Positions 4,936 to 63,862 of a stretch of 64,000 nucleotides of DNA are shown here, in pieces. The DNA is taken from NCBI GenBank assembly GCA_040386275.1, contig JAZKFU010000003.1, forward strand, positions 46,554-110,553. Reading direction: 5' to 3'. Numbering within the stretch: position 1 is the first letter of the stretch; every line of letters starts with the position of its first letter. The stretch is from Patescibacteria group bacterium. Lineage in GTDB: Bacteria > Patescibacteriota > Minisyncoccia > Phycocordibacterales > UBA918. The position numbers and the translations under genes are program-made. Under the pieces are notes generated by a model. The model saw nothing but the letters and a program-made list of their open reading frames with translations. It had not been told where the DNA came from and made no database searches.

Positions 4936-4944
4936 AATTAAATG

Positions 4945-5035
4945 TTTCTCTTCTTACAGAAGCTGTACACCTTGTCAGTATTTTTTACAAAAATACTAGG
5001 CAAGGTCTTGCGAAAGTGCCTATGCACTTTCTCAC
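4945..5035 (+). repeat. Hairpin element core, copy A (same family as the tRNA-linked elements)
   Basis: cttcttacagaagctgtACACCTTGtc-agtattttttacaaaaatact-aggCAAGGTcttgcgaaagtgcctatgcactttc aligns with the tRNA-linked elements at 41634-41710 and 58001-58066. Flanked by an ~18-bp direct duplication of the GH1 start region (4917-4934 vs 5049-5067). Confidence 0.65.
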
Positions 5036-9390: not shown

Positions 9391-9492
9391 TAATTAGGAA
9401 ATGAAGGTTAGAGAGTGGGAAGTTTGCTTTTTTTGCGCTCCCAAATTTGATTTATAATACCACATATGTTATAAAATAGCAACATTTAACCT

Positions 9493-10242: not shown

Positions 10243-10973
10243 TAATTACTATTCCTGATAAAGTAAGTTGGCGAAAAACTATCGGCACCGATAGTTTTTC
10301 TCACTACAACAAAACCAACGCAAAACGTATCCTCAAAACGTTTACTCATCAAATGAGGGACGAGATTGCCTACACGATTGAAACACTTACTAGAGATCAT
10401 CTAGCTTGGTTTGAACCAATGTATGTTGCCAAAATTGCTCAAAAAGATAATCCTCAAATTATTAATCTCTATGAGACTACACTCAATAAAGTGAAGCGAG
10501 ATTTTAAAATTTTAATCATAACTGAAAGTGAGGTTAAATTAGGAGCTATTATTTTTTCAGAGAACGCTACCGAAGTAAATATTAGCTATAAAATTTTTGC
10601 CGACACCTGGAATATGAGCACTCTTCCAGCGGGTCCTTCATTGTATGCAGATTTTTTACTCACAGAACATGCAGCACGGTCACAAAAAATTACCATAAGC
10701 CATGGAAAAGATAGAAATGGTTATGGCATGACTTCAAGTATTGGTTTGGCTATATTTAAAATCTCTCTAGGATACAAACCCTATCTTCCAAAAAAATATG
10801 AGTTTATAAGTATGGATGACACCCAAATTACAAAAGATTCTTTATATTTTACGGTTACTTCTGAAGATTCTTCACTGGTAGGTAATTTATACACAACTAA
10901 AGACACACAGCACCAGTGGGAGCGATTAAACAGTTACAAGGATCAAGTAGTAATTAACTGGATTATCCGCTAA
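10239..10973 (+). CDS. FemAB/BioF2-like GNAT-fold transferase domain protein, paralog 2
   Basis: 4-nt ATGA overlap with the upstream paralog (operon). Same conserved blocks. Confidence 0.45.
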   Translation: MIITIPDKVSWRKTIGTDSFSHYNKTNAKRILKTFTHQMRDEIAYTIETLTRDHLAWFEPMYVAKIAQKDNPQIINLYETTLNKVKRDFKILIITESEVKLGAIIFSENATEVNISYKIFADTWNMSTLPAGPSLYADFLLTEHAARSQKITISHGKDRNGYGMTSSIGLAIFKISLGYKPYLPKKYEFISMDDTQITKDSLYFTVTSEDSSLVGNLYTTKDTQHQWERLNSYKDQVVINWIIR

Positions 10974-10983
10974 GCACATCGCT

Positions 10984-26251: not shown

Positions 26252-26530
26252 CTAATCACCCCTACTAGCATCGTACATGTTCTGCTCGGACGTGCGAGCG
26301 TTCTTGACCACCATGGTGTCGCCCGTGCCAGCACGGTGAGAAAGTGGATACACCTGAGGGTGAGTCGCATCCGGCATTGGATCAGACGGTTGCTCAACAG
26401 TGCGCCGAGATTTGAACGTGGCCGGCACATTCAAAGCGTTTTTCTCAGCCCGATCGACAAATTCACTAAAGTGCAGATAGATGATGTACGCCGACTCTGC
26501 CGCAACGATAAACCATAGGAACTTTTCCAT
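26252..26530 (-). CDS. Small hypothetical membrane protein on a GC-rich patch
   Basis: GGAGGA RBS 6 nt before the MEKFLWF start. Local GC ~57% vs ~45% in the flanks. Confidence 0.4.
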   Translation of the reverse strand: MEKFLWFIVAAESAYIIYLHFSEFVDRAEKNALNVPATFKSRRTVEQPSDPMPDATHPQVYPLSHRAGTGDTMVVKNARTSEQNMYDASRGD

Positions 26531-26604
26531 GTGCGTCCTCCTAAAAAACACGGATTTTCTTCTCTAACACTATAAATTAAAAATATTGTATGTCAAGGTA
26601 TCGT

Positions 26605-28764: not shown

Positions 28765-29286
28765 TTAGTTTGAAATTTCAATGAGACTCGACACTGACTC
28801 ACCCATCGCATCTGTCGCTTTTGCATCACTCGCTTCATTAAATGAGCCGTCATCGTTAGATTCGCGAAATAGAAAGGCCCACACTTGTTCCCCAACCAAC
28901 GTAGCTCGAGAGAGCGGCACGCTTACGTTACTACTACCTCCAGCCGGCAACCATACACTTGAACCGAGCATCGTTGTAGCATTATCATCAACGTTTTCAT
29001 ACACCACTACATATCCTGGTTCAGCTAGATTCACTTGGGAAATAGTGATATTTTTGCCCGCACGTTGCGCGCTTGCATCAATGAAAATTTCACCCACTGA
29101 ACTATTTTCCGATGGCACAAAATCTGTTTCCCCTTCGTTGCCATCCTCGCCGATAATCACTTGAGCATTCTCGTCACCAGGGTTACTACCTACATTTTTA
29201 GAAAAATCCACACTTTGACTCTCAACGTAAAAATATAATCCGCCTAGTAATAAAAAAACAATAATGAAAAAGGTTGATTGTGACAT
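28765..29286 (-). CDS. Secreted acidic protein, paralog of 33959..34489 (uncharacterised family)
   Basis: Shares LGGLYFY, PGYVVVYEN, LGSSVWLPAGG and LSRATLVGEQVWAFLFRESNDDGSF blocks with 33959..34489. Confidence 0.5.
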   Translation of the reverse strand: MSQSTFFIIVFLLLGGLYFYVESQSVDFSKNVGSNPGDENAQVIIGEDGNEGETDFVPSENSSVGEIFIDASAQRAGKNITISQVNLAEPGYVVVYENVDDNATTMLGSSVWLPAGGSSNVSVPLSRATLVGEQVWAFLFRESNDDGSFNEASDAKATDAMGESVSSLIEISN

Positions 29287-29361
29287 ATTGTTTAGTATAG
29301 CAAATACATTTTAAAAAAAATGTAGTGTGCACTCTTTAATGACGAAGCCGTGGTAATACCA

Positions 29362-29700
29362 CTAACTTACGTTTATATTCACTGCCATCACTTCAATTGA
29401 TCCTCCCGGAATTGCAAAATGCGGATGGTTAACAAATAAGCTTGCTGCGGCCTCAAGTGAGTCTGCCTCTACAAAGGAGTACATCATAATGTCATTTCGT
29501 GCGTCTTCAATTCCTGAGGCCGTAATACGTTTTGGTCTCCCTACCCCGGCGGTTTCTTTGATAACGTCAGTATGATGTTGCATCCAGTCATTCCACTGTG
29601 ATTGCATGACCGCTTCTTGAGTTTTACGTTCGGCTTCAGGTAACCCCATCCAGGCATCAAGTCCTTCGTGCGGCATTTGGTACGTGACGATGAATTTCAT
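29362..29700 (-). CDS. Hypothetical small protein (possible alpha/beta-barrel stress-protein fold)
   Basis: 112 aa, no signal peptide. No confident motif. Confidence 0.4.
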   Translation of the reverse strand: MKFIVTYQMPHEGLDAWMGLPEAERKTQEAVMQSQWNDWMQHHTDVIKETAGVGRPKRITASGIEDARNDIMMYSFVEADSLEAAASLFVNHPHFAIPGGSIEVMAVNINVS

Positions 29701-29805
29701 ATACAGTAATTATAACCCACCGGTGATTGTTAATACAGCCTCCGACCTGTCCCTGATTTCATTTCAGAAAACAAAAGGCCTCATCTATTATGGTAAAATT
29801 TCTTC

Positions 29806-30171
29806 ATGAACGCCGATACAAAAAAGATTCCCCGGATATATACCATGAGCTTTGCGAGCGTCTATGTTTTGTATATCAAAAAAGTCGAACGGAAAGGTCG
29901 GAGTAAAGACGAAGTTGATACCGTTATCAAATGGCTCACCGGTTACACCCAAGCAAAATTAAACAGCCAAATTAAAAAGCAAACCAATTTTGAAGACTTT
30001 TTTAATCAAGCGCCAAAACTAAACCCATCTCGGCAATTAATTACCGGGGTTATTTGTGGTGTACGCATTGAAGACATTACCGACCCTCTTATGCGCGAAA
30101 TTCGCTACCTCGATAAACTCGTAGACGAGTTAGCGAAAGGCAAAGACTTGGCTAAAATTTTACGGAAATAA
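29806..30171 (+). CDS. DUF2200-family protein
   Basis: [37 protein letters not shown] closely resembles the DUF2200 conserved core. Confidence 0.5.
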
Positions 30172-30172
30172 A

Positions 30173-30979
30173 TTAGAACAACGCCACTAGTCGTTCAAAA
30201 AACCACACAATTGCAATTACCGAAATAATAATTGCGACTATCTTTACCGCCCGTGGATACCAGGTTTTTTGTTTACAATACAGCAATACTGGCAGTGCGA
30301 TTACAATAATCAGCAACTGTCCCAGTTCTATCCCAATATTGAATGACAACAATGAGGAGAGAAAGGTTTCTTTAGGTACTGAAATTTCGGTGAGTAACCC
30401 AGCAAACCCTAAACCGTGAAATAAACCGAAGAAAAAGACCAAGGCTGTCTTGGCCCACTGATGCGCCATAACTCGCAAATGTCCAAAAAATGTCGTTACT
30501 ATTGCCACTACTGCAATAGATAAGGCTATCACCGGCTCAACAATAGCAGATGACAAAACCAGAGTTCCCGTTCCTGCCAAAATTAACGTGAGTGAATGCG
30601 CAATAGTAAACGTAGTGACCAATCTAAATATTTCACCCACCGATACAAACATCAGCAGTAACGAGAGCACAAACAAAATATGGTCGGGACCAGCGAGAAT
30701 ATGCTCAATCCCTAACGAGACAAAATCTTTAGCATTATGAAAAAATCCCGCATCATTATTTTGCGTTAAGAGCGTAATATCATCAGCAGATGATACTCTA
30801 ATTTTTTCCGCCACTTCCGGACTTTGTGTTTCGGCAAATTCATTAATTTCCTCACTGGTAGCATCGGGATTTTCTTTTAGGAAATTAATAACCTCTTGAG
30901 GCAATAGTTCATGGGCTTTAACCTGTATCGTAACGGTAAACAGGAACATCAAGATAGTTACAGCCAGTACGTATTTCAT
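30173..30979 (-). CDS. HupE/UreJ-family membrane protein (putative Ni/Co transporter)
   Basis: GPDHILFVLSLLL histidine motif at the start of a 6-TM core, preceded by a signal peptide. Confidence 0.6.
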   Translation of the reverse strand: MKYVLAVTILMFLFTVTIQVKAHELLPQEVINFLKENPDATSEEINEFAETQSPEVAEKIRVSSADDITLLTQNNDAGFFHNAKDFVSLGIEHILAGPDHILFVLSLLLMFVSVGEIFRLVTTFTIAHSLTLILAGTGTLVLSSAIVEPVIALSIAVVAIVTTFFGHLRVMAHQWAKTALVFFFGLFHGLGFAGLLTEISVPKETFLSSLLSFNIGIELGQLLIIVIALPVLLYCKQKTWYPRAVKIVAIIISVIAIVWFFERLVALF

Positions 30980-30989
30980 ATACTCTATT

Positions 30990-32255
30990 TTAATTAGTAA
31001 AAACGGTCGAGTTTAAAAGCGCCCCGTACGTCGAAAGATTTTTTGCTGTAGCAGCATACGACTCAGCCTGTTTTGTATTATTGTTAGCAGCATATATGGT
31101 ACTCGCGAGCATTACAATATCCGGGTCATATTCACCGATCCTCATAGCCTCGGTAATTTTTTCCTCAGCTTCAGTTAGTTTATTATTTTTATATAATGCA
31201 AACGCATACGTGTAGGCAGCAAATAGTGACGGACGCGCATCATACGCCCGGCTAGCCCGTGTGAGTGCCTCCCCTCCATCCCCGTGTCTGGCCAAAAAGT
31301 AGGCGTATTCCAAATCAACATTTACGCCTTTTGAATCTCTATAAGCAAGGTCAGCCAGGGTATAGTATTGCTCCGCTTTCCCAACCTCTTTTTCAAGAGT
31401 GTAATAGTCACCCAAGGTCGTGGCGTACTGAGCTATAGGTAACACTTCAAATGCTTTAGTAAAATAAAGTAAAGCTTCATTTTTATCTCCTGCATCATAC
31501 GCAACTCGTCCTAACCCCTCCAGCGCCGGAGCGTAGTTAGGATAGAGCGCTAGAGCCTGCTCAAATTGTTTTTTCGATTCATCTGTAGCGGTGCCAAATA
31601 AAAGTTTACCCCATTCAACGTGCGCCCAAGCAATGTTTTCAGTGTAGACACTTCCGGCTGAAATAGCTGCTTCAAGAGCTTCACGTGCTCCTTCCTTATC
31701 TCCATATAATTCTCGCACGTACGCTATCCGTGTATAGGAACTGAAATTCGGTTTTAGCGAAACCATTTTTTGCAGTGATTGTTGAGCTGCTTCATACTGA
31801 CCCAATTCAATCTCTGCATCGGTTTTAATCCCATAATACGTTGCAGCCGTATCATCAAGGGCAAGCGCCTCGTTTATCAGTTCTAAGCCTTCGTTAAATT
31901 CATGACGACCATTAGCTAGCTCCGCACGTTTAGCCAGCACTCGGGCATCGGTTGGACGAGCAGATTGGGCCGTAGTCAAAACGGTATCAATTTTTTCATA
32001 CAATCGAGCATCTCCCGTCTCCCGAATAGTTTGCAGGTACAATTCAGATAATGATAACGCTATATTTACATTAGTGGGATCAGCTGCTAATTGTGCTTCT
32101 ACTGTAGCGACGCGTGCACTTGTAGCAGTAGGTATTTCAGCTACAACCTCACTTTTGGCGTCGTTAATTTGTGACCAAATATAAAGTCCGCTACTCACCA
32201 TAGCTATGCTAGCGACGAGGGCAAAAAGTGTATTACTGGTGAGTGTCTTAGACAT
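30990..32255 (-). CDS. TPR-repeat protein, membrane anchored
   Basis: Multiple 34-residue A/L/Y-rich repeats (ALALYPNYAPALEGLGRVAYDAGD). Confidence 0.7.
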   Translation of the reverse strand: MSKTLTSNTLFALVASIAMVSSGLYIWSQINDAKSEVVAEIPTATSARVATVEAQLAADPTNVNIALSLSELYLQTIRETGDARLYEKIDTVLTTAQSARPTDARVLAKRAELANGRHEFNEGLELINEALALDDTAATYYGIKTDAEIELGQYEAAQQSLQKMVSLKPNFSSYTRIAYVRELYGDKEGAREALEAAISAGSVYTENIAWAHVEWGKLLFGTATDESKKQFEQALALYPNYAPALEGLGRVAYDAGDKNEALLYFTKAFEVLPIAQYATTLGDYYTLEKEVGKAEQYYTLADLAYRDSKGVNVDLEYAYFLARHGDGGEALTRASRAYDARPSLFAAYTYAFALYKNNKLTEAEEKITEAMRIGEYDPDIVMLASTIYAANNNTKQAESYAATAKNLSTYGALLNSTVFTN

Positions 32256-32327
32256 ATGTGAATAGAGTAATTGTACGGAATACTATCCGAAACACGAGCG
32301 TCAATGCGCCCGTGTTCCAAATACTAT

Positions 32328-33815
32328 TTACTGTTGATGCGGCACTGATTCAAAACCACTCCATGGCAGCGCGAGGTACGGGAAAGTAGTTCTAAATTCA
32401 GCATCGTTTTTATCTACCCCATCACCCAACTGTGCGGCGAGTGGGTCTGCGTTAAATTCTGGATGAAAGAGTGGGTAGGCGGCTCCGGCCACTGCTTTAA
32501 TCGAGATATCAGTCACATCGTCAGCGAGTCGACGGCCGTTTGGATACCCTTGATTATCGCCAGCAACTACTCCGAGACTATTTGGAGTCACGGTTGGAGC
32601 TACAGCGAGGTTCAATCGAAGTTGTTCAGACGGAGTTACGGTAGCTGTCTTAGTTAACCCGGGGATACCGGTAAGGAAGATGGCAATTAAGTCATCACGT
32701 TGCTTGTCTGTTCCAAACGCTCCTTGAGGTGGAACTTGGATGTTATACAACGCCTTAAGGAGATTACCGAGTTCTGGATTGGCTACGTATTGAGCAAATT
32801 GTGCATCGTCACTTGGCTTTGATGCGTTCCATACATCTTTATCACCGAGCGGGATAACCACTTCGTTCACGAGCGGTGCACCCAACCGTGAGACTTGCAC
32901 CCAGTCACCTTTATCTTTATTGTGTTTTGGATCCTTATCTTTTGCATTGCGCAATACATTCATTGCTTGTCGTGAAGAGGTAGTCCAGACACCAACTACA
33001 GCATTATCTGCTTCTACTTGAGTTGGCACTTTTCCGTCCTTAGATAGTTCTGTGATGGGTACTTGAATAGCAATTGATTGCACATTGTATCCTTTGAGAC
33101 CATCTACACCTCCACCATCATTACCCGGCAACTTTCGAATCGTTAGAAGATCAAACAATCCTCCTAAATCAACAAAGAATGGATCATCACTTTGTCCGGC
33201 AAATACCTTCCCACCACTTGATAGTGGCGTTATAGCCATGTCTTGTAGTTTCTTGTAGTCAGGAGTTGATTTTGGACCAACGTTTGAGGGTGGTACTGGC
33301 ACATTATCTCCAATCACAATACTTTTACTTTTACCTTTATCGTCATACGCCACCTTGGTCACGGTGTATTTCTGACGGACATTAAAGTCTGGATCATTTA
33401 AGGCAGTGATTGCTCCTGTGTTATAGAGGAAGGTGTTTTTGTTATTTATTGTAGTTGTAAATCGAAATTGGTAGGCAATGTCTTCTTTTGCATCACCATC
33501 GTTATCGATTTTAATTTCGTACAGTACATTATCATCAAACGAGTAAAAGTTTGGTCCTCCACCCGGTTCTTGAAATGGTAGGTAGTTAGCGATAATGGTT
33601 GCAGTTTTTGCATTATCGGGACTCACAAACGCAAAGAGGTCAGTAGCGTCAGCTTTCGGGTCGCCACTAATCATCGGTGCTTCGCGGTGACTCGAAGCGC
33701 TGGTGAATTGACTTACTCCCAGCAACCCCGCTACGGTTCCCGCAATTAATACGAGCGTCACTCCTTTTGTACCTATTCTTTTAACATCACTTTGATAATT
33801 ATTTATATGATACAT
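32328..33815 (-). CDS. DUF4331-family secreted protein
   Basis: SSHREAPMISGDPKADATDLFAF, the N-terminal SHREAP signature of DUF4331. Signal anchor. 495 aa. Confidence 0.65.
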   Translation of the reverse strand: MYHINNYQSDVKRIGTKGVTLVLIAGTVAGLLGVSQFTSASSHREAPMISGDPKADATDLFAFVSPDNAKTATIIANYLPFQEPGGGPNFYSFDDNVLYEIKIDNDGDAKEDIAYQFRFTTTINNKNTFLYNTGAITALNDPDFNVRQKYTVTKVAYDDKGKSKSIVIGDNVPVPPSNVGPKSTPDYKKLQDMAITPLSSGGKVFAGQSDDPFFVDLGGLFDLLTIRKLPGNDGGGVDGLKGYNVQSIAIQVPITELSKDGKVPTQVEADNAVVGVWTTSSRQAMNVLRNAKDKDPKHNKDKGDWVQVSRLGAPLVNEVVIPLGDKDVWNASKPSDDAQFAQYVANPELGNLLKALYNIQVPPQGAFGTDKQRDDLIAIFLTGIPGLTKTATVTPSEQLRLNLAVAPTVTPNSLGVVAGDNQGYPNGRRLADDVTDISIKAVAGAAYPLFHPEFNADPLAAQLGDGVDKNDAEFRTTFPYLALPWSGFESVPHQQ

Positions 33816-33958
33816 AATTGTTACGATTATTATTACTTAATAACGTTAACTAATTATACTATACTTAACTAAGTTAAGTATATTGCCAAGGGGATATTTC
33901 CGTATCATAAAAAGCACCCTCGAGTATACGGGTGCTTATGCACTTATTAGCATGTACC

Positions 33959-34489
33959 CTACAATGTAATTCCCGCGCTCTCTTCGGCGGCAGCGTTTAT
34001 GGTAAACCACCCAGCAATGGGTTCCCCGTTACTGCCCTCAATCGGAGTATCTATTGACGGGTCAAACGTGTCATCACCATTAGATTCACTATGTAGCATC
34101 GCCCAAAGTTTCTCACCGTCGCTTGCGTCTCGACTCAATGCAACAAAAACGTCGTCATTTTCTCCCGCCGCCAACAGTGAACTTGTGCCGAGGATATCTC
34201 CCGGTTTCCCATTACCATCAGCGTGGATTACTACATACCCCGGCATTTTCAAATCTACCTTGTTTACTTGAACACGTGCCCCCGGACGTTGCTCCATAGC
34301 AAACACGGCGTTATCTTCCATTTGCAAACCACTCGTGGTGTCTCCACTAGTCGCAGTGGTTGAACTTTCTCCACCAAAAATATCAGGCATCTCTACCCCA
34401 CTCGTAAGTGGGTTTTCACGATTACTCATAAAATAATACAATCCACCGATAACAATTAGGGCAATAAGGATAAATACGATATATCTCAT
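33959..34489 (-). CDS. Secreted acidic protein, paralog of 28765..29286
   Basis: See 28765..29286. Sits at the head of the DUF4331-TPR-HupE gene string. Confidence 0.5.
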   Translation of the reverse strand: MRYIVFILIALIVIGGLYYFMSNRENPLTSGVEMPDIFGGESSTTATSGDTTSGLQMEDNAVFAMEQRPGARVQVNKVDLKMPGYVVIHADGNGKPGDILGTSSLLAAGENDDVFVALSRDASDGEKLWAMLHSESNGDDTFDPSIDTPIEGSNGEPIAGWFTINAAAEESAGITL

Positions 34490-34883: not shown

Positions 34884-35036
34884 CTCCCCTGTATCCGTTT
34901 TAAATAATACTCTTCAGACTTGAAAACTTCAAACATTACCTTAATAAAGAAGCGTCAAAATCCAGACCCAGTGCAGTTGACATTTATAAATATTAATACA
35001 TAATATTAAAAGAAGCACATTGTTAGGAGGACCACC

Positions 35037-36329
35037 ATGACCCGCAACGCTCGTCCTACCCCCGGCCAAATACTCAGCCGACGCACCATTTCTGAAGTGC
35101 GTCGCTACAAGGTCTGGGACTGCTCGAGCTGTGGCGTCACTGGCCTCAACTCAAAAAAATGTAAACAGTGCCCTCAGTGTGGGAACTCAAAAGACGCCAG
35201 CGACAACGAGGAGCGTTCTGTTACCGAAGTTGACGCGAACTACAAACATGAAGGGGCCGACATCACCTGTGAATTCTGCCAGACGGAAAATGAAAAGCGT
35301 TTCAGCTGCAAGCAGTGTGGCGCAGCGCTTAATTCAAAATTCGCCAAACAGGTACAGGGGTTTACTCACGCCCAGGCACTCATCATACCCACGCGCGAGG
35401 TACAGATTGACGATACCGGCTTTCTGCCTGATGCCGTTGAAACACCCTGGAACGATGGCTCTGCGCCGGTTGTTCTTAAAGAGCCGGCACCGGAAGTCCA
35501 CGCGCTTGAGCCGTCACCTCCTGAAGTAAAACCAAAGCGCTCTACTGCCGCTCCCCAAAAAGTCTGGGTAACAGAAACCAAAGAGGTGATAAGCGAGAAA
35601 CGTCCAACGTTTTGGATTGCTATCGCAGTGGCAGTGGTTGTAGTGTTGTTCATCTTTGGCATGTTTGTGTACAACCAATTGCACACGTTCACGCCAACAA
35701 CCGCTCGTGTAGCTTCTGTTTCCTGGACCTACTCTCAACCGCTTGAAGACTACGCGGCCCGGAATCATTCATTTGAAACCGAGCACGCCTTCTGGCGACC
35801 GCCCAATGATGCGTATGACATCAGGGACGATATGGTGATTATGCGTTCCGAGCCGATTCTCGAACAAGTGTGGGTTTCAAAGTCCTGCACGCGTACAGAA
35901 AACAGTTCCTACGATGACACCGATGGTACCTGGGTACAAAAGTCTGAACTCGTCACCTACGACTGTTCGGAATACGAAACCAAACAAGTGGGCACCACTC
36001 CAATTATGGGCACCCGTTGGACTTGGAAAGAGATGGAGTGGGCACCCACAACACCTCTAACCGCCCGCGGGGATAGTCACACCGTGACCTACCCGCAGTT
36101 TGTTCCAACCAACACCCTGAGGCGGGGCGGAACCGCTACCACCACCTTTAGCGTCCTGTTCACGTATACGGACGATGATGGTGAGATTCAGTCTGCCAAG
36201 CGTGACTACTCTCGACCCATCTGGGAACAGACAAAAGTCGGCATGACCTTTGATGGACTGGTAGACGGTTTCGACCGTCTCAAAGCTATCAAAGGTCTCG
36301 ACCCTGAGTACACAGAACTGATGAAGTAA
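35037..36329 (+). CDS. Double zinc-ribbon membrane protein with extracytoplasmic C-terminal domain
   Basis: AGGAGG RBS. Two CxxC...CxxC ribbons in the first 100 aa, one TM helix (FWIAIAVAVVVVLFIFGMFVY), then a 210-aa W-rich domain. GC ~54%. Confidence 0.6.
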   Translation: MTRNARPTPGQILSRRTISEVRRYKVWDCSSCGVTGLNSKKCKQCPQCGNSKDASDNEERSVTEVDANYKHEGADITCEFCQTENEKRFSCKQCGAALNSKFAKQVQGFTHAQALIIPTREVQIDDTGFLPDAVETPWNDGSAPVVLKEPAPEVHALEPSPPEVKPKRSTAAPQKVWVTETKEVISEKRPTFWIAIAVAVVVVLFIFGMFVYNQLHTFTPTTARVASVSWTYSQPLEDYAARNHSFETEHAFWRPPNDAYDIRDDMVIMRSEPILEQVWVSKSCTRTENSSYDDTDGTWVQKSELVTYDCSEYETKQVGTTPIMGTRWTWKEMEWAPTTPLTARGDSHTVTYPQFVPTNTLRRGGTATTTFSVLFTYTDDDGEIQSAKRDYSRPIWEQTKVGMTFDGLVDGFDRLKAIKGLDPEYTELMK

Positions 36330-41610: not shown

Positions 41611-41769
41611 GAGCTGCCGATCAGGGACTCGAAGCTATACAGCTTCAGTACACCTTGTCGCTCATTTGTTTCCTATCGTAACAAAAGAGCTGGCAAGGTC
41701 TTCGAGTCCCTAATCGGACTAGCAATGGCAAAGGCCACAAATGTATTCACATTTGTGGCCTGCCTTTGC
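41611..41769. repeat. tRNA-Gln-linked hairpin element (copy F) plus spacer hairpin
   Basis: 41613-41633 (gctgccgatcagggactcgaa) duplicates the tRNA-Gln 3' end at 41770-41790. Core 41634-41710 has the ACACCTTGTC/GGCAAGGTC stem and ends in ttcgagtccctaatcgg, an inverted copy of the tRNA 3' end. Perfect hairpin GGCCACAAAT-n-ATTTGTGGCC at 41732-41760. Confidence 0.7.
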
Positions 41770-46950: not shown

Positions 46951-47916
46951 TTATACGGGCAACTCTTCTTCAGCCGGACGTGGCGGGAGTGCTGGTGTAG
47001 CGGCGGGAACAATTTGTTTTTTGGTACTGTCTTCAGTTACTGGTTGTGTTGTCGTAGCAGTGGTAGTGCCGACTCCACCCACCTCTTCATTTACAAACAC
47101 TTTGTTACCAAAGCGCAAATCAATGTACTGAAAATTACCAGGTCTAATATCGCTAAACTCTTTTGATGCTAAAATGGTACGCAGGTTATCAAAAACTTTT
47201 TGCGCATCATCCTTTAAGGTGGCTTTAAATTCTCCTCCGCCACCCACGATATAAAATACATCCCCCGCTGTATCGGTTTCAATTTGTGTGATAGCAAAGG
47301 GCAGATTTGATTCTACCAAACTTACAAACGTCTCCATCGTGGTGAGTTCTGTTGGCTCGGCCATCGAAGCGCCCACTTTCATATCTCGGCCTAGGGTTCG
47401 GTATCGTAAAAATGCTCCCCCGGATAATTTTGGAGCAGCTCCAAACGCATAGCCCGTGATATCAACAAAGACACAGTCACTACTGGTTCTATCCGCACAC
47501 CACAGCGCGTACGGTTGGTACTCGTCAAAACTTATAGTGAGTAACCGACCACCGTCACGTTCAACAATGGGATTTTTCATCCGGGGAATTTCAGAAATTG
47601 CTTTTACAATCTCTGTTTGCGGGTACCACCAGGCAAATTTCCGCGGAATAATGCCGAGGTACGTCCCTTCTAACTTTTCGCGCGCCAATTTTTCTACCAC
47701 CGTATGAGGAATAGTTTCTCCCCCCGCTACCGCAACCTCAGTAATCGTTAAAAACGAAACCCGGGTGCCGTACCATACGACACTAACTAAAAACCCCAAT
47801 ATGATAAATAGCAATAGCCCAAACGCCAGCTGCTTGAGCAGCATAATTTTACTTGGATCAACTACTCTTCGTTTGACCTTACCTTTTTTGTGAACGGCAC
47901 TCGTCTTTTTGAACAT
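46951..47916 (-). CDS. ftsQ: Cell division protein FtsQ/DivIB-like (POTRA-containing, bitopic)
   Basis: Basic cytoplasmic N terminus, one TM, then LTITEVAVAG (POTRA start) and a beta-rich periplasmic domain. P-rich C terminus. Confidence 0.5.
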   Translation of the reverse strand: MFKKTSAVHKKGKVKRRVVDPSKIMLLKQLAFGLLLFIILGFLVSVVWYGTRVSFLTITEVAVAGGETIPHTVVEKLAREKLEGTYLGIIPRKFAWWYPQTEIVKAISEIPRMKNPIVERDGGRLLTISFDEYQPYALWCADRTSSDCVFVDITGYAFGAAPKLSGGAFLRYRTLGRDMKVGASMAEPTELTTMETFVSLVESNLPFAITQIETDTAGDVFYIVGGGGEFKATLKDDAQKVFDNLRTILASKEFSDIRPGNFQYIDLRFGNKVFVNEEVGGVGTTTATTTQPVTEDSTKKQIVPAATPALPPRPAEEELPV

Positions 47917-48233: not shown

Positions 48234-49511
48234 CTAGCCAATTTTATTACTGCCAAAATATTTTTGTAAGACTTCAGGGATGGCAATAGAGCCGTCCGCT
48301 TGCTGGAAGTTTTCTACCAACGACACCAAAATCCGTGGCGTTGGGATAGCGGTACAGTTTAATGAGTGAGCGTAACGCATCACACCACCTTCATCTTTAT
48401 AGCGAATGTTAAAGCGACGGGTTTGGAAATCGTGGAAGTACGACGCCGAACTAATTTCGCGGTAGGTTTTTTCACCCGGCACCCAGAGTTCAATATCGTA
48501 TTTTTTCACCTGACCTTGCCCAATATCACCACCACAATTTAATACGGTGTGGTATGGAATGCCGAGAGATTCAATAAATTCTTCAGTATTGCGGTTTATC
48601 TCTTCGTGTAATCGGACACTCTCTTCGTGAGAGGCTTCACATAACACCACTTGTTCCACCTTAAAAAATTCATGCACCCGGATGAGGCCACGAGTATCTT
48701 TTCCATGACTACCGGCTTCACGTCGATAACACGGCGAAAACGCGAGGTGTTTAATCGGAAACATTGATTTATCCAGTACCTCATCAGCGTAAAAGCCCAT
48801 GGTTGAGACCTCACTGGTACCAATCAAGTAATCATCATCCTGAGTTTTGTATACGTCCTCTGCATCATTAGGGAGATGCCCCGTACCATAGAGGTTACTT
48901 TTACGTACTATAGTTGGCCCGAGCAATTGATCAAACCCTTTCGCACAGAAAAAATCATTTGCGTAGTTCCAAATTGCCCAGGACAACCGCGCGCCGGCAC
49001 CCGTCAGGAAATAGCCACGGAACCCATGCACTTTTACTCCCCGTTCAAAATCTACCATCTTTAAATTAGTCATCAATTCCACATGGTCTTTCATTGGAAA
49101 TGGCAAAGGGGCCGGAGTATCGGTTGAACCATTTGGGTTCCAAACTTTTACTTCCACGTTATCGGCGTCACTATCACCATCGGGTACCGACATATCCGGA
49201 ATGTTGGGTACTTGGAGCATGAGCGCTTTCCACTCATCCATAATTGGCTTGAGTTTTTCCTCATCAGCTTGAATCGACATCTTGAGGTTTTGCATCTCTT
49301 CGATTAATTGCGTGCGTACTTCAGGAGATGCTACTGCCACTTGACCAGACACCTGATTTTGAATGGCTTTTTTATTTTCAAGTTCAGTCATCACTGACTT
49401 ACGCGCTTCATCGAGGGACACCAACCGATCGAGATCAACTTTGATTTTCTTCTTGACCGCTGCCATCTTTACCAAGTCCACGTTCTCCCGAATAAATTTG
49501 ATGTCTAACAT
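48234..49511 (-). CDS. serS: Seryl-tRNA synthetase
   Basis: N-terminal coiled-coil arm (MLDIKFIRENVDLV), class II motifs 2 and 3 (FRGYFLTGAG, GSASYFHDFQTRR). 425 aa. Confidence 0.95.
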   Translation of the reverse strand: MLDIKFIRENVDLVKMAAVKKKIKVDLDRLVSLDEARKSVMTELENKKAIQNQVSGQVAVASPEVRTQLIEEMQNLKMSIQADEEKLKPIMDEWKALMLQVPNIPDMSVPDGDSDADNVEVKVWNPNGSTDTPAPLPFPMKDHVELMTNLKMVDFERGVKVHGFRGYFLTGAGARLSWAIWNYANDFFCAKGFDQLLGPTIVRKSNLYGTGHLPNDAEDVYKTQDDDYLIGTSEVSTMGFYADEVLDKSMFPIKHLAFSPCYRREAGSHGKDTRGLIRVHEFFKVEQVVLCEASHEESVRLHEEINRNTEEFIESLGIPYHTVLNCGGDIGQGQVKKYDIELWVPGEKTYREISSASYFHDFQTRRFNIRYKDEGGVMRYAHSLNCTAIPTPRILVSLVENFQQADGSIAIPEVLQKYFGSNKIG

Positions 49512-49562
49512 AATTCCCTTAGAATACTAGAAATTCACAGTAATTCAAATTTAAAGTGTTGC

Positions 49563-49592
49563 AAAAAAACAGCGTCTGCTAGACAGACGCTG
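49563..49592 (-). terminator. Rho-independent terminator (CAGCGTCTG-ctaga-CAGACGCTG + 7 U on minus strand)
   Basis: Perfect 9-bp stem preceded on the plus strand by aaaaaaa. Sits just upstream of the serS start. Confidence 0.6.
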
Positions 49593-49837
49593 AATGAGAA
49601 GCTGAGGGTGTATAGATGTGTTGTGTCGGCTGAGCCCCACATCACACCCCCAGCGCAGCTTTTAGACGGAAAAGCCGCAAACAAAACCCAACTTCGAGCC
49701 AAGGACACACTTGGCTTATATCTCCATATACATGAGTCACGGGAGGGAGAATGTCTATGCTCCCAGCGCTCACAAAGAGGTCAAGCAACCTCTTTGATTT
49801 AAAATATAATACTACCTTAATACAATTTTGTCAATTA

Positions 49838-49866
49838 TAAAAACGGCGGGCTGTTAAAGGCCCGCC
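49838..49866 (-). terminator. Rho-independent terminator for the beta-barrel gene (GGCGGGC...GCCCGCC + U-run)
   Basis: Hairpin 11 nt past the stop at 49877, followed on the minus strand by GTTTTTAT. Confidence 0.6.
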
Positions 49867-49876
49867 GCGATACATC

Positions 49877-50575
49877 TTAAAAATTGTAGCTCAGCGTCAA
49901 GCCGAACGTCGTCTGCTTAATTTTTGCCTCAAGCGTTTGGTTACCCATCTGCCCCAGACCAAACGGCTTGTTGGCATCAAACTGCATCTGAGTGGCCTTA
50001 AGTCCAATCGAGAAACGGTCTGAGACTGCGTACTGCACACCGATGGTGTACAAAGCACCCAATGCACCGCCTTCCTTGAAATCAGCCCACGAGCCAAAGG
50101 GTGTATCAAGCGAAAGCCCCATCGACAGATTGGTCGCCACCACTCCGGCGCCGACGTACAGATACACGCGCTCTTGTTTGCCCAGCACGAGTCCCAATTC
50201 ACCACCAGCCGATACCCGCAGGTCCGACGCAATGGTGAACGCCGCAGTCGATTTGTGGTCGTGCCAGTACTTGGCCCCACCGATGCTCCCATCATGAAGC
50301 GAAGCGTTCACTCCGAGACGAAGCTTGCTCTGCCCGAGCGGGAACCGATAGCCAAGCTCATAGGTAGTCACGTTTCCCGTCAGCGGAACATCGAGAATTT
50401 CCCCGAGGGAAATTATCGGTCCATAGTGCGAGAGCGTGAACTCACCATCGCTTTTGCTGGTACCCAGTGAAGCATAGACCCCCGTATAGGGACGCTTCGC
50501 TTCAGCGTTGGAATCGGTTGCGCCCGTCATCAGGGAAACAATCGCCACAGCCAGCATCATCACAACTTTTTTCAT
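49877..50575 (-). CDS. Outer-membrane beta-barrel protein (OmpA-like TM / OmpW / PF13505-like porin family)
   Basis: Signal peptide MKKVVMMLAVAIVSLMTGATDSNA. 8-10 amphipathic beta-strands (TTYELGYRF, LRLGVNASL, VYLYVGAGVVA, LYTIGVQYAVS, FSIGLKATQMQF). C-terminal LSYNF aromatic signature. GC ~56%. Confidence 0.7.
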   Translation of the reverse strand: MKKVVMMLAVAIVSLMTGATDSNAEAKRPYTGVYASLGTSKSDGEFTLSHYGPIISLGEILDVPLTGNVTTYELGYRFPLGQSKLRLGVNASLHDGSIGGAKYWHDHKSTAAFTIASDLRVSAGGELGLVLGKQERVYLYVGAGVVATNLSMGLSLDTPFGSWADFKEGGALGALYTIGVQYAVSDRFSIGLKATQMQFDANKPFGLGQMGNQTLEAKIKQTTFGLTLSYNF

Positions 50576-50691
50576 AGTCCTGCCCTCTTTTTATGCTCAT
50601 TGTGAGCGTTCTACCAACTTATATAATAGCATAAATAATCAAAAAGTCAATGTTTGCACCGTCTCCTACTCATGGTGTGGTAGAATTTTGT

Positions 50692-57940: not shown

Positions 57941-58068
57941 CAAAACAAAATACCCAAGCAAAGCTTAGGTATTTTATTTGTGCTGGAGGAGGGACTTGAA
58001 ACTTACAGTTTCAGTACAGGTTGTCGCTATTTTTTCAAAATAGCTGGCAACCTTTTCAAGTCCCTGGG
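57941..58068. repeat. tRNA-Leu-linked element (copy G): 60-bp direct repeat (spacer hairpin + tRNA 3' end) flanking a 66-bp hairpin core
   Basis: 57941-58000 is identical to 58069-58128, which runs into tRNA-Leu. Core 58001-58066 is acttacag-tttcagtACAGGTTGtc-GCTATTTT-ttc-AAAATAGC-tgg-CAACCTtt-TTCAAGTCCC. Terminator-like palindrome AAAATACCCAAGC-AAA-GCTTAGGTATTTT in each repeat. Confidence 0.8.
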
Positions 58069-58108
58069 CAAAACAAAATACCCAAGCAAAGCTTAGGTAT
58101 TTTATTTG

Positions 58109-60121: not shown

Positions 60122-60182
60122 CTGAATAAACGAAGTGAGAGCAGAGGGACCACGATAGCAGCTTTTGAAAAAAGCGTTGCGC

Positions 60183-60278
60183 GGACTTGAAGAGGTTGCC
60201 AGCTATCTTTTTGACGAAGGAGAAAAGTAGTGACAACCTGTACAGAATTCGTAGAATTCAAGTCCTCGTGGGCCCGCC
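60183..60278. repeat. tRNA-Trp-linked hairpin element (copy H)
   Basis: Starts with GGACTTGAA (inverted T-loop). Core AGGTTG-cca-GCTATCTTTT...AAAAGTAGT-ga-CAACCT-gtacag. Ends with ttcaagtcctcgtgggcccgcc, a direct copy of the tRNA-Trp 3' 21 nt. Confidence 0.75.
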
Positions 60279-61222: not shown

Positions 61223-62284
61223 TTATCTGCAAAAAGTTGATGCTCGCAATACTCTGTATCGGCTATCACTGTAATAACCACTGCCATTACTAATAATAAT
61301 TCCTCTGTTTGTTCCTGCAGCATGGATAACTTGTGAACAACCATTATTCATACAAATTACCACATGACCTGCGCCATTAGTTCTATGAATCAATGCATCG
61401 CCAGTTTGAAGACTGCTAGGGCTACCGATGGGAGCGGAGTAGCGTATCATATCTCCCGTATAAGTACCGATTCGACGACATCCTGCTGCAGCATATGCAT
61501 CGTTAACAAGCTCAGAACAGTCTGTATAGCCCGGACTACCAGTACAAGAATTTCGAAGAGGCTGACTATATTGGCATCGTCGTTGTCGTTGTGCTTCCGC
61601 AAACCGTACAATAGCACTATTGCCTCCAGTACCAATTGGAGCTACATAATCTCCTCCACCGCCGCCCGCACCACCACCACCTAACTCAGACCCAGGTACA
61701 GCTACCGCGGTTGGATCTGGCTCTTCTGCCTCAAGGTATTCTACTTCATCTTGCTCGACCTCATTAAATACAGTTTCAACTTGGTTCTGGCAAGTTACCT
61801 CACTCCAAAACAAATACCCAGAAGCGGTTCCGCCCGCGACAATTTGCCCAGGATTACCATCTGTTCCAACTAACGCCCGCATGATGGTGTCTACAATAAG
61901 CCAGGCAGCTAAAATAATCATAAAGCCAACAATGGCGTTTATAAATGAGGACTTGGCTTCATCGAGCGCATGATGATTCCCCCCTGACGTTACCAACTTC
62001 ACTCCCGCAATAGCGAGCAAAAGTGCGAAGATAACAAATAGTATCCCAATGAGCCAGGTAATTAATCCATTGGCCATCGACACAACATTACAAGCGCTAC
62101 AATCTAAACCAGTACAACCCGACAACTGCGCTAAACCAAGGTCACCTGCAAACGCAGACGGCACAAAAAACCCAAACAGAAAGACTAGTAAGAATATTAT
62201 GGGAACTATTTTCATATTATAGTTTGGCAGTATCGGGACAGAAACTAAACCGGTAATCAAACCCAGAAGCAACTTCATCAACAT
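61223..62284 (-). CDS. VirB2/TrbC-pilin-like double-TM module fused to a CHAP/NlpC-P60-type peptidoglycan amidase/peptidase domain
   Basis: Signal peptide (MKIVPIIFLLVFLFGFFVPSAFA), Cys-rich loop CTGLDCSAC, two hydrophobic helices around KLVTSGGN...EAKSS, Gly-rich linker. C-terminal DCSELVNDAY (Cys) and GHVVIC (His) resemble a CHAP catalytic pair. Start may be the internal Met. Confidence 0.55.
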   Translation of the reverse strand: MLMKLLLGLITGLVSVPILPNYNMKIVPIIFLLVFLFGFFVPSAFAGDLGLAQLSGCTGLDCSACNVVSMANGLITWLIGILFVIFALLLAIAGVKLVTSGGNHHALDEAKSSFINAIVGFMIILAAWLIVDTIMRALVGTDGNPGQIVAGGTASGYLFWSEVTCQNQVETVFNEVEQDEVEYLEAEEPDPTAVAVPGSELGGGGAGGGGGDYVAPIGTGGNSAIVRFAEAQRQRRCQYSQPLRNSCTGSPGYTDCSELVNDAYAAAGCRRIGTYTGDMIRYSAPIGSPSSLQTGDALIHRTNGAGHVVICMNNGCSQVIHAAGTNRGIIISNGSGYYSDSRYRVLRASTFCR

Positions 62285-62725: not shown

Positions 62726-63862
62726 TTAGCCACCATAACGCGTAATACATTGCATCGCTCGTGAATTGCAATTGGCACATGTCCAATCATTATACCCATT
62801 ACGCCTTACTATATTAACTGCTACCCTGGTATTACAACTGGCATTCTGACAACTTGTAGCATGGTCACTACAGGAACCCCCAACGTTATATAAATTCCAG
62901 GTCGTTCGCACAATTTGAAATAGCCCACAAGCACTAGAATTAGAACCAGGATGAGTAACATTATATGGTGGAGTTGCGGGGTTACCCGAGCTCTCGGTCA
63001 TAGCAATACACGACATTACATTTGCCTGTGTAATAGTCATGCCAGCCGCGCGTAACGCAGGGACGCTACAGTAGGTATTAGTACATTGCGGTAAACTACC
63101 CCCTGTCCCACCACCACTGACTTGTCGCGGAGCACACAGTACAGCACTTCCGGCAGCGTTAAGGGTTGGCGTACCAGGCGCAGCGCGACACTGTGCTTCT
63201 TGAGCCGAACAATCATACTCATTTACTCCCGGCGGTCCTGGCAGAAGTCTACAGGCGGCATTATAAGAACCAGCTGGAGCTGAAGAACCTCCTGCAGTAC
63301 TCCCCGCCGGCACCCAACCCTGCACACCACCCAGCCCTTCCTCAAGCGAAAGGTACTCAATAGCATCTTGTGTAACGGTAATCGAGCGAGCCAGTGGCTG
63401 ATCAACACAGCTTATTTGATTCCAGACACCAAAACTATATGTCCCATCTTGAAGCAACAAAGCGCGCAACCCATAGTCGAGCACCAACCACGCCGCTAAC
63501 ACAATTAAGTATCCAATCAACAAATTAGTCATGGAACTTTTCGCTTCTTCTTTCGCACTAGAATTACCCGCTGACGTTACTAATCGTGCCCCCGCCACAA
63601 CGATCAAAATCGCCGCAATCACCCCGAGTATCATCACGAGCCACCCCACAACATTGTTAACCAATACCACCACATGACATGCCTGACACGGCGGTTCACC
63701 TGCTCCGCCACACGCTGGCACCAAACCAGCCGCCCCGACCGACACCGGAACAATAAATATACAAACCATTACCACAAGGGCTACCAGGAGTTTCTGCATT
63801 ACCAATAAGCTTACCACACAACCCCTTTCTAAATACCCGAAACTGTGATAATTTGTACCCAC
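62726..63862 (-). CDS. VirB2/TrbC-pilin-like double-TM module fused to a lytic transglycosylase (SLT) domain
   Basis: N-terminal module paralogous to 61223..62284 (RLVTSAGN...EAKSS...VLAAWLVLD). C-terminal IAMTESSGNP and GLFQI, the ES / GLxQ signatures of family-1 lytic transglycosylases. Cys-rich. Confidence 0.6.
   Translation of the reverse strand: MGTNYHSFGYLERGCVVSLLVMQKLLVALVVMVCIFIVPVSVGAAGLVPACGGAGEPPCQACHVVVLVNNVVGWLVMILGVIAAILIVVAGARLVTSAGNSSAKEEAKSSMTNLLIGYLIVLAAWLVLDYGLRALLLQDGTYSFGVWNQISCVDQPLARSITVTQDAIEYLSLEEGLGGVQGWVPAGSTAGGSSAPAGSYNAACRLLPGPPGVNEYDCSAQEAQCRAAPGTPTLNAAGSAVLCAPRQVSGGGTGGSLPQCTNTYCSVPALRAAGMTITQANVMSCIAMTESSGNPATPPYNVTHPGSNSSACGLFQIVRTTWNLYNVGGSCSDHATSCQNASCNTRVAVNIVRRNGYNDWTCANCNSRAMQCITRYGG

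Follow-up and report, generated by a model that had tools for sequence, protein, structure and literature searches.

A predicted outer-membrane-type beta-barrel at a conserved locus of Candidatus Kaiserbacteria, and an adjacent species-specific hairpin-rich insertion

Can a transmembrane beta-barrel of the outer-membrane type be a native component of bacteria that are regarded as having a single membrane? This question is raised by a gene within a 64-kb stretch of DNA (64,000 nt, hereafter the window) from a Patescibacteria MAG whose relatives are Candidatus Kaiserbacteria, a placement that agrees with the CPR/Patescibacteria setting recognized in a preliminary description made from the sequence. 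Published work describes Patescibacteria as devoid of an outer membrane, of PilQ and of TonB-dependent systems (PMC6744442), and neither family surveys nor microscopy have reported an outer membrane for CPR (PMC6744442; PMC8871954). The explanation preferred here is that the gene encodes a genuine, functional, Sec-exported eight-stranded transmembrane beta-barrel of the OmpX/NspA/OmpW/OmpA-N type (PF13505), native to a clade of Ca. Kaiserbacteria, and that a separate insertion beside it represents an orphan small RNA or a remnant. A probability of about 0.72 is given to this explanation as a whole, the nature of the protein included.

The barrel gene (49877..50575, minus strand) codes for a protein of 232 amino acids with predicted Sec export, which begins with MKKVVMMLAVAIVSLMTGATDSNAEA and ends in ...GLTLSYNF. 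Pfam matches it to the OMP_b-brl family PF13505 (E=7.3e-11, 43 bits against a gathering threshold of 28.7 bits, profile positions 4-175 of 175), a profile also matched by 16 of 21 members of the barrel family. This is the sole Pfam match, all 232 residues belonging to the barrel, and the predicted fold is the closed antiparallel eight-stranded barrel that characterizes PF13505, with long strands of ~20 residues. The earlier proposal of an outer-membrane-type barrel with a signal peptide and an ...LSYNF end is thereby borne out. The signal peptide, assigned by inspection of the sequence, occupies residues 1-26 (coding part 50498..50575, minus strand) and comprises MKK, a 13-residue hydrophobic core and SNA before the cleavage point, followed by EA; the AxA-E at its end is kept throughout the family, and residues 2-17 form an N-terminal helix of low confidence in the structure model. 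The terminal-aromatic motif is also well kept, the last residue being F in 19/21 members, Y in 1/21 and L in 1/21. Pfam profiles for OmpW (PF03922), Opacity (PF02462) and Ail-Lom gave no match to the window protein, with PF02462 producing one weak match among the 21 members, while the family profile reached OmpW in the PDB at E 0.075-0.098. The peptidoglycan-binding domain OmpA_C (PF00691) is absent by Pfam, which sets the protein apart from full-length OmpA. No PHROG match was obtained, and NCBIfam gave nothing usable.

The gene is preceded by a promoter (50623..50650, minus strand) composed of TTGACT, a 16-nt spacer and TATTAT, with a TG before the -10 hexamer (extended -10) and 10/12 matches, which is kept in loci L001, L005, L008, L012 and L019. 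A Shine-Dalgarno region, AGAGGGCAG (50580..50588, minus strand), is located 4 nt 5' of the ATG with its GAGGG core 6 nt away, and GAGG or GGAGG is kept upstream of the orthologues. A terminator of the gene's own had been proposed at 49838-49866, and an intrinsic terminator is found there on the minus strand (49833..49868), with a stem at 49868..49843 of 9 pairs, 8 of them G-C, followed by a T-rich tail, TTTTATAATT. Relatives have retained this terminator, and in L007/L008 a G-C pair is replaced by A-T, a compensatory change. As read from these sequence signals, the strong promoter, the strong Shine-Dalgarno region and the conserved terminator make the barrel gene an insulated monocistronic unit.

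The composition of the gene had led the preliminary description to consider a foreign or artefactual origin. The raised GC is confirmed at values slightly lower than estimated, as the gene measures 54.4% against 44.8% for serS (previously ~56% and ~45%) and 44.2% for the window, while its GC3 of 62.7% is the highest among the window's 64 ORFs; spurious ORFs overlapping it, as had been pointed out, are present at 49897..50295 (minus strand), 49992..50297 and 50174..50470 (both plus strand). These values, together with the gene's own promoter and terminator, would favour a recently acquired islet, in which this species received the gene from a diderm donor, and the difference in composition is also the single argument for an assembly chimera or misbinned contig, with CPR DNA fused to a piece of diderm origin. 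Nonetheless, GC3 lies above that of the neighbours in 9/9 lineages examined, through an excess of C relative to T as well as of G relative to A, which indicates a property of the gene and not a foreign signature.

The slot topA-dprA-barrel-serS-FtsQ-like-Dus is occupied by barrel homologues in the ten other loci checked, at identities down to 26%, and serS is 73-95% identical across the genomes that carry the barrel in this slot. These loci comprise close homologues (L001, L005, L007, L008, L013 and L015/L016) and distant ones (L009, L012, L017 and L019). Barrel identity is 56-67% where that of serS is 86-95%, and falls to 26-30% where serS has 73-82% and topA 72-83%. The dS of the barrel gene (0.65-0.96) is equal to that of its neighbours (0.68-1.41), dS having reached saturation in the comparisons of the window lineage with the others. 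No close homologue occurs outside the family, where the nearest matches, named 'outer membrane immunogenic protein', reach E~1e-6 at best. Synteny thus refutes recent horizontal acquisition, which is left with very little probability. As for chimerism or misbinning, its probability is negligible: L006, L015, L016, L013 and L014, five assemblies that represent the species and its 98% strain, have identical junctions around the barrel gene, the dprA-barrel-element-serS stretch recurs, either exactly or at 97-98% identity, in an NCBI contig of 39 kb, in a MAG contig and in Logan assemblies from different runs, and the flanking housekeeping genes are continuous in every relative. On the evidence of the compared sequences, the barrel gene belongs natively to a single clade of Ca. 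Kaiserbacteria, as a single-copy positional orthologue between dprA and serS, and has been inherited within its lineage, neither recently imported nor mis-assembled. An ancient acquisition at the base of this Kaiserbacteria clade may have taken place.

The family to which the protein belongs is small, with 22 representatives among 1.84 billion (E<=1e-3), two of whose members carry the JGI label 'opacity protein-like surface antigen', and a scan of metagenome contigs with the barrel protein alignment (A1) found nothing. The barrel gene has a dN/dS of 0.13-0.23, compared with 0.016-0.033 for serS, and its non-synonymous evolution is five to nine times faster than that of serS. Despite this fast evolution, the protein has retained its length and fold as well as its signal peptide and the aromatic motif at its C-terminus. 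Fast non-synonymous change with a kept architecture is typical of proteins that are exposed at the surface and take part in host or phage contact. The argument for surface exposure leans mainly on the overall evolutionary rate, since the entropies of the predicted outward halves and loops (2.18 and 2.75) are only slightly higher than those of the inward halves (1.92 and 2.25) and were not used as evidence.

Which membrane the barrel would occupy is a more difficult matter. The preliminary description had proposed a search for the nearest homologues and for outer-membrane machinery; the former share the slot in Kaiserbacteria relatives, and the latter search, which covered the 64-kb window, found no outer-membrane biogenesis genes (Bam, Lpt, Lol, Tol) among the ~55 ORFs scanned. 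Taken with the reported lack of an outer membrane in CPR, this leaves a canonical barrel that has no known insertase here, and no report of an OMP, BamA or an outer membrane in Parcubacteria or Kaiserbacteria was found in the literature. Following Sec export, the barrel would insert into a lipid bilayer at the surface of the cell, where its long variable strand tips and loops might be displayed as an adhesin or recognition module, by analogy with Opa, Ail, OmpX and NspA. The bilayer favoured as its location is the symbiont's own envelope rather than the outer membrane of a diderm host.

Two other locations have been weighed against this one. The barrel could be an effector, which the epibiont exports and which serves as an anchor or conduit in the outer membrane of its diderm host, having inserted there unaided or by means of the host BAM. 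This would account for an aromatic C-terminal motif that is conserved although CPR have no known insertase and would suit the very fast evolution, which is expected of proteins at a host interface; T4SS-pilin genes are also present within the window, and Patescibacteria with gammaproteobacterial hosts have been described (10.1101/2024.03.08.584096). It is nonetheless unlikely, considering that there is no known route of delivery into a host periplasm, that no host has been identified for this clade and that the neighbourhood of the barrel gene is purely housekeeping. Alternatively, the clade itself might possess an outer lipid membrane together with an insertase of the Omp85 type, the clade being diderm or the gene a relic of a diderm ancestor, with the barrel as a resident OMP. 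Expression signals as strong as those of a major OMP, and a signal peptide, barrel and aromatic motif kept over deep divergence, would be consistent with such a membrane, but a single narrow clade accounts for the whole family, so that retention of a relic would need many losses elsewhere in CPR; given also that Bam, Lpt, Lol and Tol genes are missing from the 64 kb and that CPR are reported without an outer membrane (PMC6744442; PMC8871954), this is judged quite improbable. In a phylum regarded as monoderm and devoid of BamA, a clade would then have kept a canonical BAM-type barrel under purifying selection over deep divergence, in genomes with serS identity down to 73%, which would imply either insertion of the symbiont's barrel into a host outer membrane through the host BAM or an unrecognised outer lipid layer with its insertase, a proposition that is unlikely. 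The symbiont's own envelope remains the favoured location.

A second feature of the locus is found between the barrel gene and serS. In relatives, only ~93-124 nt separate the barrel stop codon from the serS ATG, while in this species ~270 nt (49570..49838) have been inserted between the stem of the barrel terminator and the ancestral T-tract and serS promoter; the insertion is absent from sister species. Homology to the ancestral spacer is seen in its right flank (z 10.6) and not in its left part (z 2.1), whose similarity is not significant enough for it to be taken as a duplicate serS promoter. At the 5' end of the insertion lies a near-consensus sigma-70 promoter (49806..49834, minus strand; TTGACA, 17 nt, TATTAT; 11/12), one of three sites scoring at least 11/12 in the 64 kb, the other two being directly 5' of ORFs on the right strand. 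It is followed by a candidate structured RNA of ~237 nt (49563..49799, minus strand), with five consecutive hairpins and then an intrinsic terminator. The latter corresponds to the second strong minus-strand terminator described earlier at 49563-49592, and consists of a stem of 10 pairs (49592..49570) and U7 (T7 in the DNA) at 49569..49563. The minus-strand fold has -96.8 kcal/mol. Folding is far more stable than that of shuffles on both strands, with similar z values of -5.0 (minus) and -5.8 (plus), and the intergenic stretch ranks ~7th of 797 windows of 240 nt after GC correction. The stretch 49596-49800 is accordingly hairpin-rich, as had been noted, with a GC of 50% that is just moderately above the window mean.

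This element is found in the species and its 98% strain only, and is 97-98% conserved in the latter, promoter hexamers included. Its copies are all near-identical and show no covariation. The ORF reported at 49608..49802 on the plus strand does exist, with 64 amino acids and a GTG start, while its GAGGG abuts the GTG with zero spacing; all small ORFs of the element are frameshifted in the 98% strain, and this one is not a gene. The alternative suggestion of a small RNA holds as a structured non-coding candidate, read from the minus and not the plus strand according to its promoter and terminator. A promoter and a Rho-independent terminator of its own enclose a stable non-coding fold, the arrangement of an independent sRNA gene, and the transcript is a candidate. 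Two substitutions in the element terminator keep G-U pairs on the minus strand only, an outcome with a chance of one in four.

No Rfam family was matched by the stretch, a permissive scan of 49450-49950 giving noise only, with no match to the T-box (RF00230) at E<=10; L009 5680-6010 likewise gave noise. Rfam at the gathering threshold found four tRNAs only in the whole window, and a tRNA/tmRNA scan none in the barrel-serS region. As a separate observation, a covarying three-way-junction element follows three tRNA genes. No further copies of the inserted element occur in the window or the loci, and a 22-mer scan of metagenome contigs was empty; five 17-mer matches in viral contigs, none extending past 21 nt, are attributed to chance. 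Complementarities between the element and the 5' coding part of serS (10 nt at 90%) were also discarded, ~15 being expected by chance by our own rough estimate.

Three readings of the element have been compared. Its position directly 5' of the co-oriented gene for an aminoacyl-tRNA synthetase, with promoter, structured leader and terminator all present, recalls a cis-acting, T-box-like leader or attenuator of serS (49563-49838), in which regulated read-through would follow a strong promoter and terminator. This is decidedly improbable, in view of the absent T-box or other Rfam match even at E<=10, of a predicted fold with no convincing antiterminator alternative and of sister species that manage without the element. 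Moreover, a candidate proximal serS promoter (49521..49548, minus strand; TTGAAT, 16 nt, TATTCT) lies downstream of the terminator and ends 9 nt before the serS ATG (49511). Its sequence is conserved between the window and relatives, and its assignment is one that we infer, its score of 8/12 keeping it out of the promoter-scan list. Since serS keeps this ancestral promoter downstream of the insertion, the insertion is not needed for its expression. A non-functional remnant, that is, hairpin-rich junk in an insertion-prone spacer, has a considerable chance of being correct, if somewhat below even: the same spacer holds an unrelated hairpin-rich insert of 310 nt in L009/L010 and an extra ORF of 145 amino acids in L017, hairpin-rich intergenic DNA is common in this genome, and the element has no homologue in the window, loci, metagenome or viral scans. 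Against this stand the 11/12 promoter correctly placed before the element, the strong terminator after it and its conservation in the 98% strain. The stretch 49563-49838 is thus not a protein gene; an orphan small RNA or the inert remnant of an insertion is its likeliest identity.

Whether a single membrane is uniform in Patescibacteria bears on the gain and loss of outer membranes across bacteria, as well as on the means by which these very small epibionts hold on to their hosts and draw nutrients from them. The barrel gene provides a concrete, clonable test object for this question, being conserved, strongly signalled and fast-evolving in a lineage with no known insertase. A barrel that proves to be an ordinary surface anchor, set in the membrane of the cell itself, would be a modest result; one that enters a host membrane or reveals an outer layer would be important.

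Among known systems, the closest are the small eight-stranded barrels of PF13505 and the MBB clan, namely NspA (1p4t), OmpW (2f1t), the N-domains of OmpA and OprF, PagL and OmpX/Ail, as well as 'porin III' of the Legionella Dot/Icm system (9nh2_A). The window barrel is just 11-15% identical to the solved structures and differs from these proteins in its ~20-residue strands, in having no OmpA_C domain and in forming an isolated family of 22 representatives in Patescibacteria, where no outer membrane or BAM is known. Opacity and Omp25-Omp31 adhesin barrels, the 'outer membrane immunogenic protein' group, share with it the fast divergence, the JGI names and the nearest out-of-family matches, although the relation is E~1e-6 at best and PF02462 is matched weakly in 1/21 members. 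TtoA (3dzm), another eight-stranded barrel, comes from Thermus thermophilus, a diderm bacterium of the Terrabacteria. Thermus possesses both an outer membrane and BamA, neither of which is known for the barrel-bearing Kaiserbacteria lineage. The unit at 49563-49834, with its ~237 nt of stable hairpins, resembles stand-alone sRNA genes that have a sigma-70 promoter and a Rho-independent terminator, and it shares with T-box leaders of aminoacyl-tRNA synthetase genes a position 5' of such a gene, serS; it differs from both in being a putative transcript of one species only, outside any Rfam family.

The ORF at 49877..50575 (minus strand), between dprA and serS, encodes a protein of 232 aa, the barrel, with a typical Sec signal at its N terminus (MKK, a hydrophobic core of 13 residues and SNA/EA) and the C-terminal end ...GLTLSYNF. 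The Pfam profile PF13505 (OMP_b-brl) matched it with 43 bits (cut-off 28.7) and was covered as a whole, bearing out the beta-barrel protein with a signal peptide and a final ...LSYNF that a preliminary description had read from the sequence alone; the overlapping out-of-frame ORFs mentioned there are also present. AlphaFold2, given 12 family sequences, returned a model with a mean pLDDT of 80.6 and a pTM of 0.72, in which eight long predicted strands follow an N-terminal helix of low confidence, the signal peptide. The last strand carries a hydrophobic-x-aromatic-x-F pattern, known as the beta-signal that BamA reads, and the final residue in the family (n = 21) is F in 19, Y in one and L in one, even at ~21-30% overall identity. 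No OmpA_C domain was found with Pfam, and the OmpW and Opacity profiles, NCBIfam and PHROG gave no match. On every testable point of sequence and predicted fold the barrel agrees with the PF13505 outer membrane (OM) barrels, and it differs from full-length OmpA, OmpW and Opacity. Among the small 8-stranded OM barrels, a well-known kind, it represents a new and isolated subfamily.

The family is small. Searching 5.8 billion clusters by word index recovered only 11 homologues, and a full HMMER profile search with the barrel family against 1.84 billion representatives only 22 proteins at E<=1e-3, with lengths of 87-256 aa except for one chance-level match of 1804 aa. The closest relatives after the own species are MAGs of 'Candidatus Kaiserbacteria'. 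We examined the genomic context of homologues at every divergence level, at 98% identity (relatives' loci L013 and L014), 56-68% (L001, L005, L007, L008) and 26-30% (L009/L010, L012, L017, L019), and all occupy the slot (RelA/SpoT)-topA-dprA-[barrel]-serS-FtsQ-like-...-Dus-...-Peptidase_S11, making them positional orthologues. Amino-acid identity to the window is 94% for serS, 91% for topA and 67.5% for the barrel in L001, and 73, 76 and 28%, respectively, in L019. Next to serS, the gene at 46951-47916 (minus strand) encodes a 321-aa protein with orthologues in the relatives, which has no Pfam or NCBIfam match and which by eye starts like FtsQ/POTRA and has a transmembrane segment at its N terminus; only the barrel evolves faster in this block, and identity is 38-50% where serS has 73-82%.

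The preliminary description had considered a chimeric or misbinned contig and horizontal acquisition as sources of the gene. A contig 100% identical to the window across 16.7 kb was found, identical junctions occur for the own species in three contigs (one of 39 kb from NCBI, one from a MAG and one from a Logan assembly of another run), and the 98% strain was found in two further assemblies; such agreement between independent assemblies excludes an assembly chimera. By the Nei-Gojobori method, barrel dS in the less saturated pairs was 0.65-0.96 against 0.68-1.41 for the neighbours, indicating that gene and surroundings are equally old. Its dN/dS of 0.13-0.23 compares with 0.016-0.033 for serS and 0.03-0.10 for topA, dprA and the FtsQ-like gene, a clear signature in the codon data of purifying selection 5-9 times more permissive than on serS. 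A recent import is thus contradicted by the shared slot, the neighbour-like dS and a GC content at third codon positions (GC3) raised family-wide. Acquisition long ago, in the founder of the clade, is conceivable and would suit the narrow distribution of the family, but its donor is not identifiable: a check of the nearest homologues led to the family in Kaiserbacteria relatives, and outside it to best matches of only E~1e-6. Gene order and substitution rates show the barrel to be native, vertically inherited within one Kaiserbacteria clade.

With a GC content of 54.4%, slightly below the ~56% first estimated, and a window mean of 44.2%, the barrel is GC-rich as described, and its GC3 of 62.7% is the highest of 64 ORFs. 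In nine of nine lineages (window, L001, L005, L007, L008, L009, L012, L017, L019) its GC3 exceeds that of its neighbours by +0.02 to +0.20, dS between the window lineage and the others being saturated in this comparison, and in most lineages the rise at synonymous sites concerns C over T as well as G over A. Since all nine share it, the GC excess, as judged from composition, is not a foreign signature; expression-linked codon use and biased gene conversion are possible causes. A weak hint of a link to expression comes from the only other sites in 64 kb, besides one in the barrel-serS spacer, that match the promoter consensus at 11/12 or better, as they lie directly upstream of two of the other highest-GC3 ORFs: 34977-35004 (plus strand) before 35037-36329, and 26569-26596 (minus strand) before 26252-26551, both ORFs unannotated. 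These ORFs have GC3 values of 0.57 and 0.60; their products are a protein of 430 aa, with a single transmembrane segment and N-terminal repeats rich in CxxC, which gave no match in a Pfam scan, and a 99-aa protein. The opposite compositional outlier is a low-GC block at 8110-12318 (GC 35-40%, GC3 0.26-0.37) containing an ATP-grasp ligase, two ORFs without Pfam matches and a MATCAP-like peptidase.

Upstream of the barrel lies a promoter, TTGACT-16-TATTAT with an extended -10 TG, and a Shine-Dalgarno core, GAGGG, stands 6 nt ahead of the ATG, both being kept in most orthologues. Relatives also keep the terminator, in which L007/L008 show a compensatory change from G-C to A-T. These signals suggest an insulated monocistronic unit, divergent from dprA and probably well expressed. 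For serS, a conserved candidate promoter shared with relatives (TTGAAT-16-TATYCT, 49521-49548, minus strand) ends only 9 nt ahead of the ATG, which suggests that serS mRNA in this clade is leaderless or nearly so.

In sister species, the 93-124 nt from the barrel stop to the serS ATG hold the barrel terminator, a T-tract and this TTGAAT-16-TATYCT promoter. In the window, ~270 nt (49570-49838) are inserted between the barrel terminator stem and the ancestral spacer, the right flank aligning to the latter with a z of 10.6 and the left part remaining unaligned (z 2.1). On its minus strand the insert has a promoter, TTGACA-17-TATTAT (11/12, a level reached by three sites in the 64 kb). Transcription is predicted to start near 49799 and would run through five hairpins in a row to a 10-bp terminator with U7. 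Both minus-strand terminators of the preliminary description were located at the positions given there, and the stretch between them, described there as hairpin-rich, is far more stably folded than shuffled sequences (z -5.0 minus, -5.8 plus; rank ~7th of 797 GC-corrected windows of 240 nt); that account of the islet is accurate overall, with small numerical corrections. An Rfam scan, proposed there for 49596-49800, was run and matched no family to the insert, T-box included, and no other copies occur in the window, related loci, or metagenome or viral collections. The 98% strain has the insert at 97-98% identity with a 1-nt deletion that shifts a 64-aa plus-strand ORF and 48- and 57-aa minus-strand ORFs, so that a protein gene is rejected; the 64-aa ORF, previously assigned a GAGGG ribosome-binding site, is present, its GAGG abutting a GTG start. 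Two terminator-stem substitutions retain G-U pairs in the minus-strand RNA only (chance ~1/4), weakly favoring such an RNA. The spacer is evidently insertion-prone, judging from an unrelated hairpin-rich 310-nt insert in L009 (5690-6001) and L010 (4268-4579), with a z of -6.7, perfect 11- and 18-bp hairpins and no Rfam match, and from an extra 145-aa ORF in L017 (5864-6301) with no Pfam or PHROG match. The insert in the window is about equally likely to be a transcribed orphan sRNA or an inert remnant, and a role as serS attenuator is unlikely.

A sliding-fold scan found the DNA beside three of four tRNA genes to be even more structured than this serS-proximal stretch. A conserved three-way-junction element of 84-97 nt, unrelated to the serS-proximal one, occurs downstream of tRNA-Leu(caa), tRNA-Gln(ctg) and tRNA-Trp(cca), at 57981-58064 (minus), 41614-41710 (minus) and 60181-60276 (plus), with compensatory changes at 8 of 28 base pairs among only three sequences. 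At its end each copy repeats 20 nt of its own tRNA exactly, from the T-loop to the discriminator, and the covarying 5' strand pairs with this repeat. At tRNA-Leu, the 40-nt terminator hairpin and the 20-nt tRNA 3' end are duplicated exactly on both sides of the element (hairpins at 58069-58108 and 57941-57980, minus). A further copy lies downstream of tRNA-Leu in L019 (788-884, minus; covariance model 60.5 bits), whose serS is 73% identical. A divergent copy at 4934-5019 (minus; flanks to ~5075; 38 bits, E 2e-8) borders directly on the ATG of a GH1 glycosidase gene (3712-4935, minus). On the upstream side of this copy the GH1 N-terminal coding sequence is repeated (KKTFPEEFYWG vs MKKFPEGFYWG), an arrangement suggesting that the element inserted at the 5' end of the gene and duplicated its target. 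With no Rfam family and no copies in the viral collection, it may represent a small insertion element that duplicates its target, or else an RNA of a new type linked to tRNAs.

The unusual feature of the barrel is that a phylum regarded as monoderm carries it as a conserved orthologue. Published surveys describe CPR bacteria (Patescibacteria) as having no outer membrane, PilQ or TonB systems (PMC6744442; PMC8871954; PMC12102498, preprint), and literature searches returned no report of such a conserved OM-type barrel in Patescibacteria. The window's gene content fits a CPR genome (housekeeping genes, DsbA/DsbB, glycosidases, T4SS-pilin fusions), with no Bam, Lpt, Lol, Tol-Pal or LPS synthesis genes among the ~55 ORFs scanned. 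Two T4SS_pilin fusions to cell-wall hydrolase domains, NlpC/P60 and SLT_3 lysozyme-like (61223-62284 and 62726-63862, minus), fit the monoderm-type T4SS described for Patescibacteria (PMC12102498, preprint). Two DUF7282 proteins cluster at 28765-34489 (minus) with a DUF4331 protein (519 bits), a TPR protein and a membrane protein of the HupE/UreJ_2 type, perhaps forming a module for metal handling or for the surface.

The gene itself combines a predicted PF13505 barrel fold with an apparent Sec-type signal, a conserved aromatic C-terminus, purifying selection at a high rate and strong putative expression signals. It is a real, clean oddity that poses a testable question, and so far nothing shows unconventional envelope biology. 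Candidate bilayers are the symbiont's own envelope, an unseen outer layer with an insertase, and the outer membrane of a diderm host, one report describing Patescibacteria with gammaproteobacterial hosts (10.1101/2024.03.08.584096). Once exported, the barrel would embed in a bilayer at the surface of the cell, where its variable strand tips and loops would be exposed and serve in recognition or adhesion, as in Opa, Ail, OmpX and NspA.
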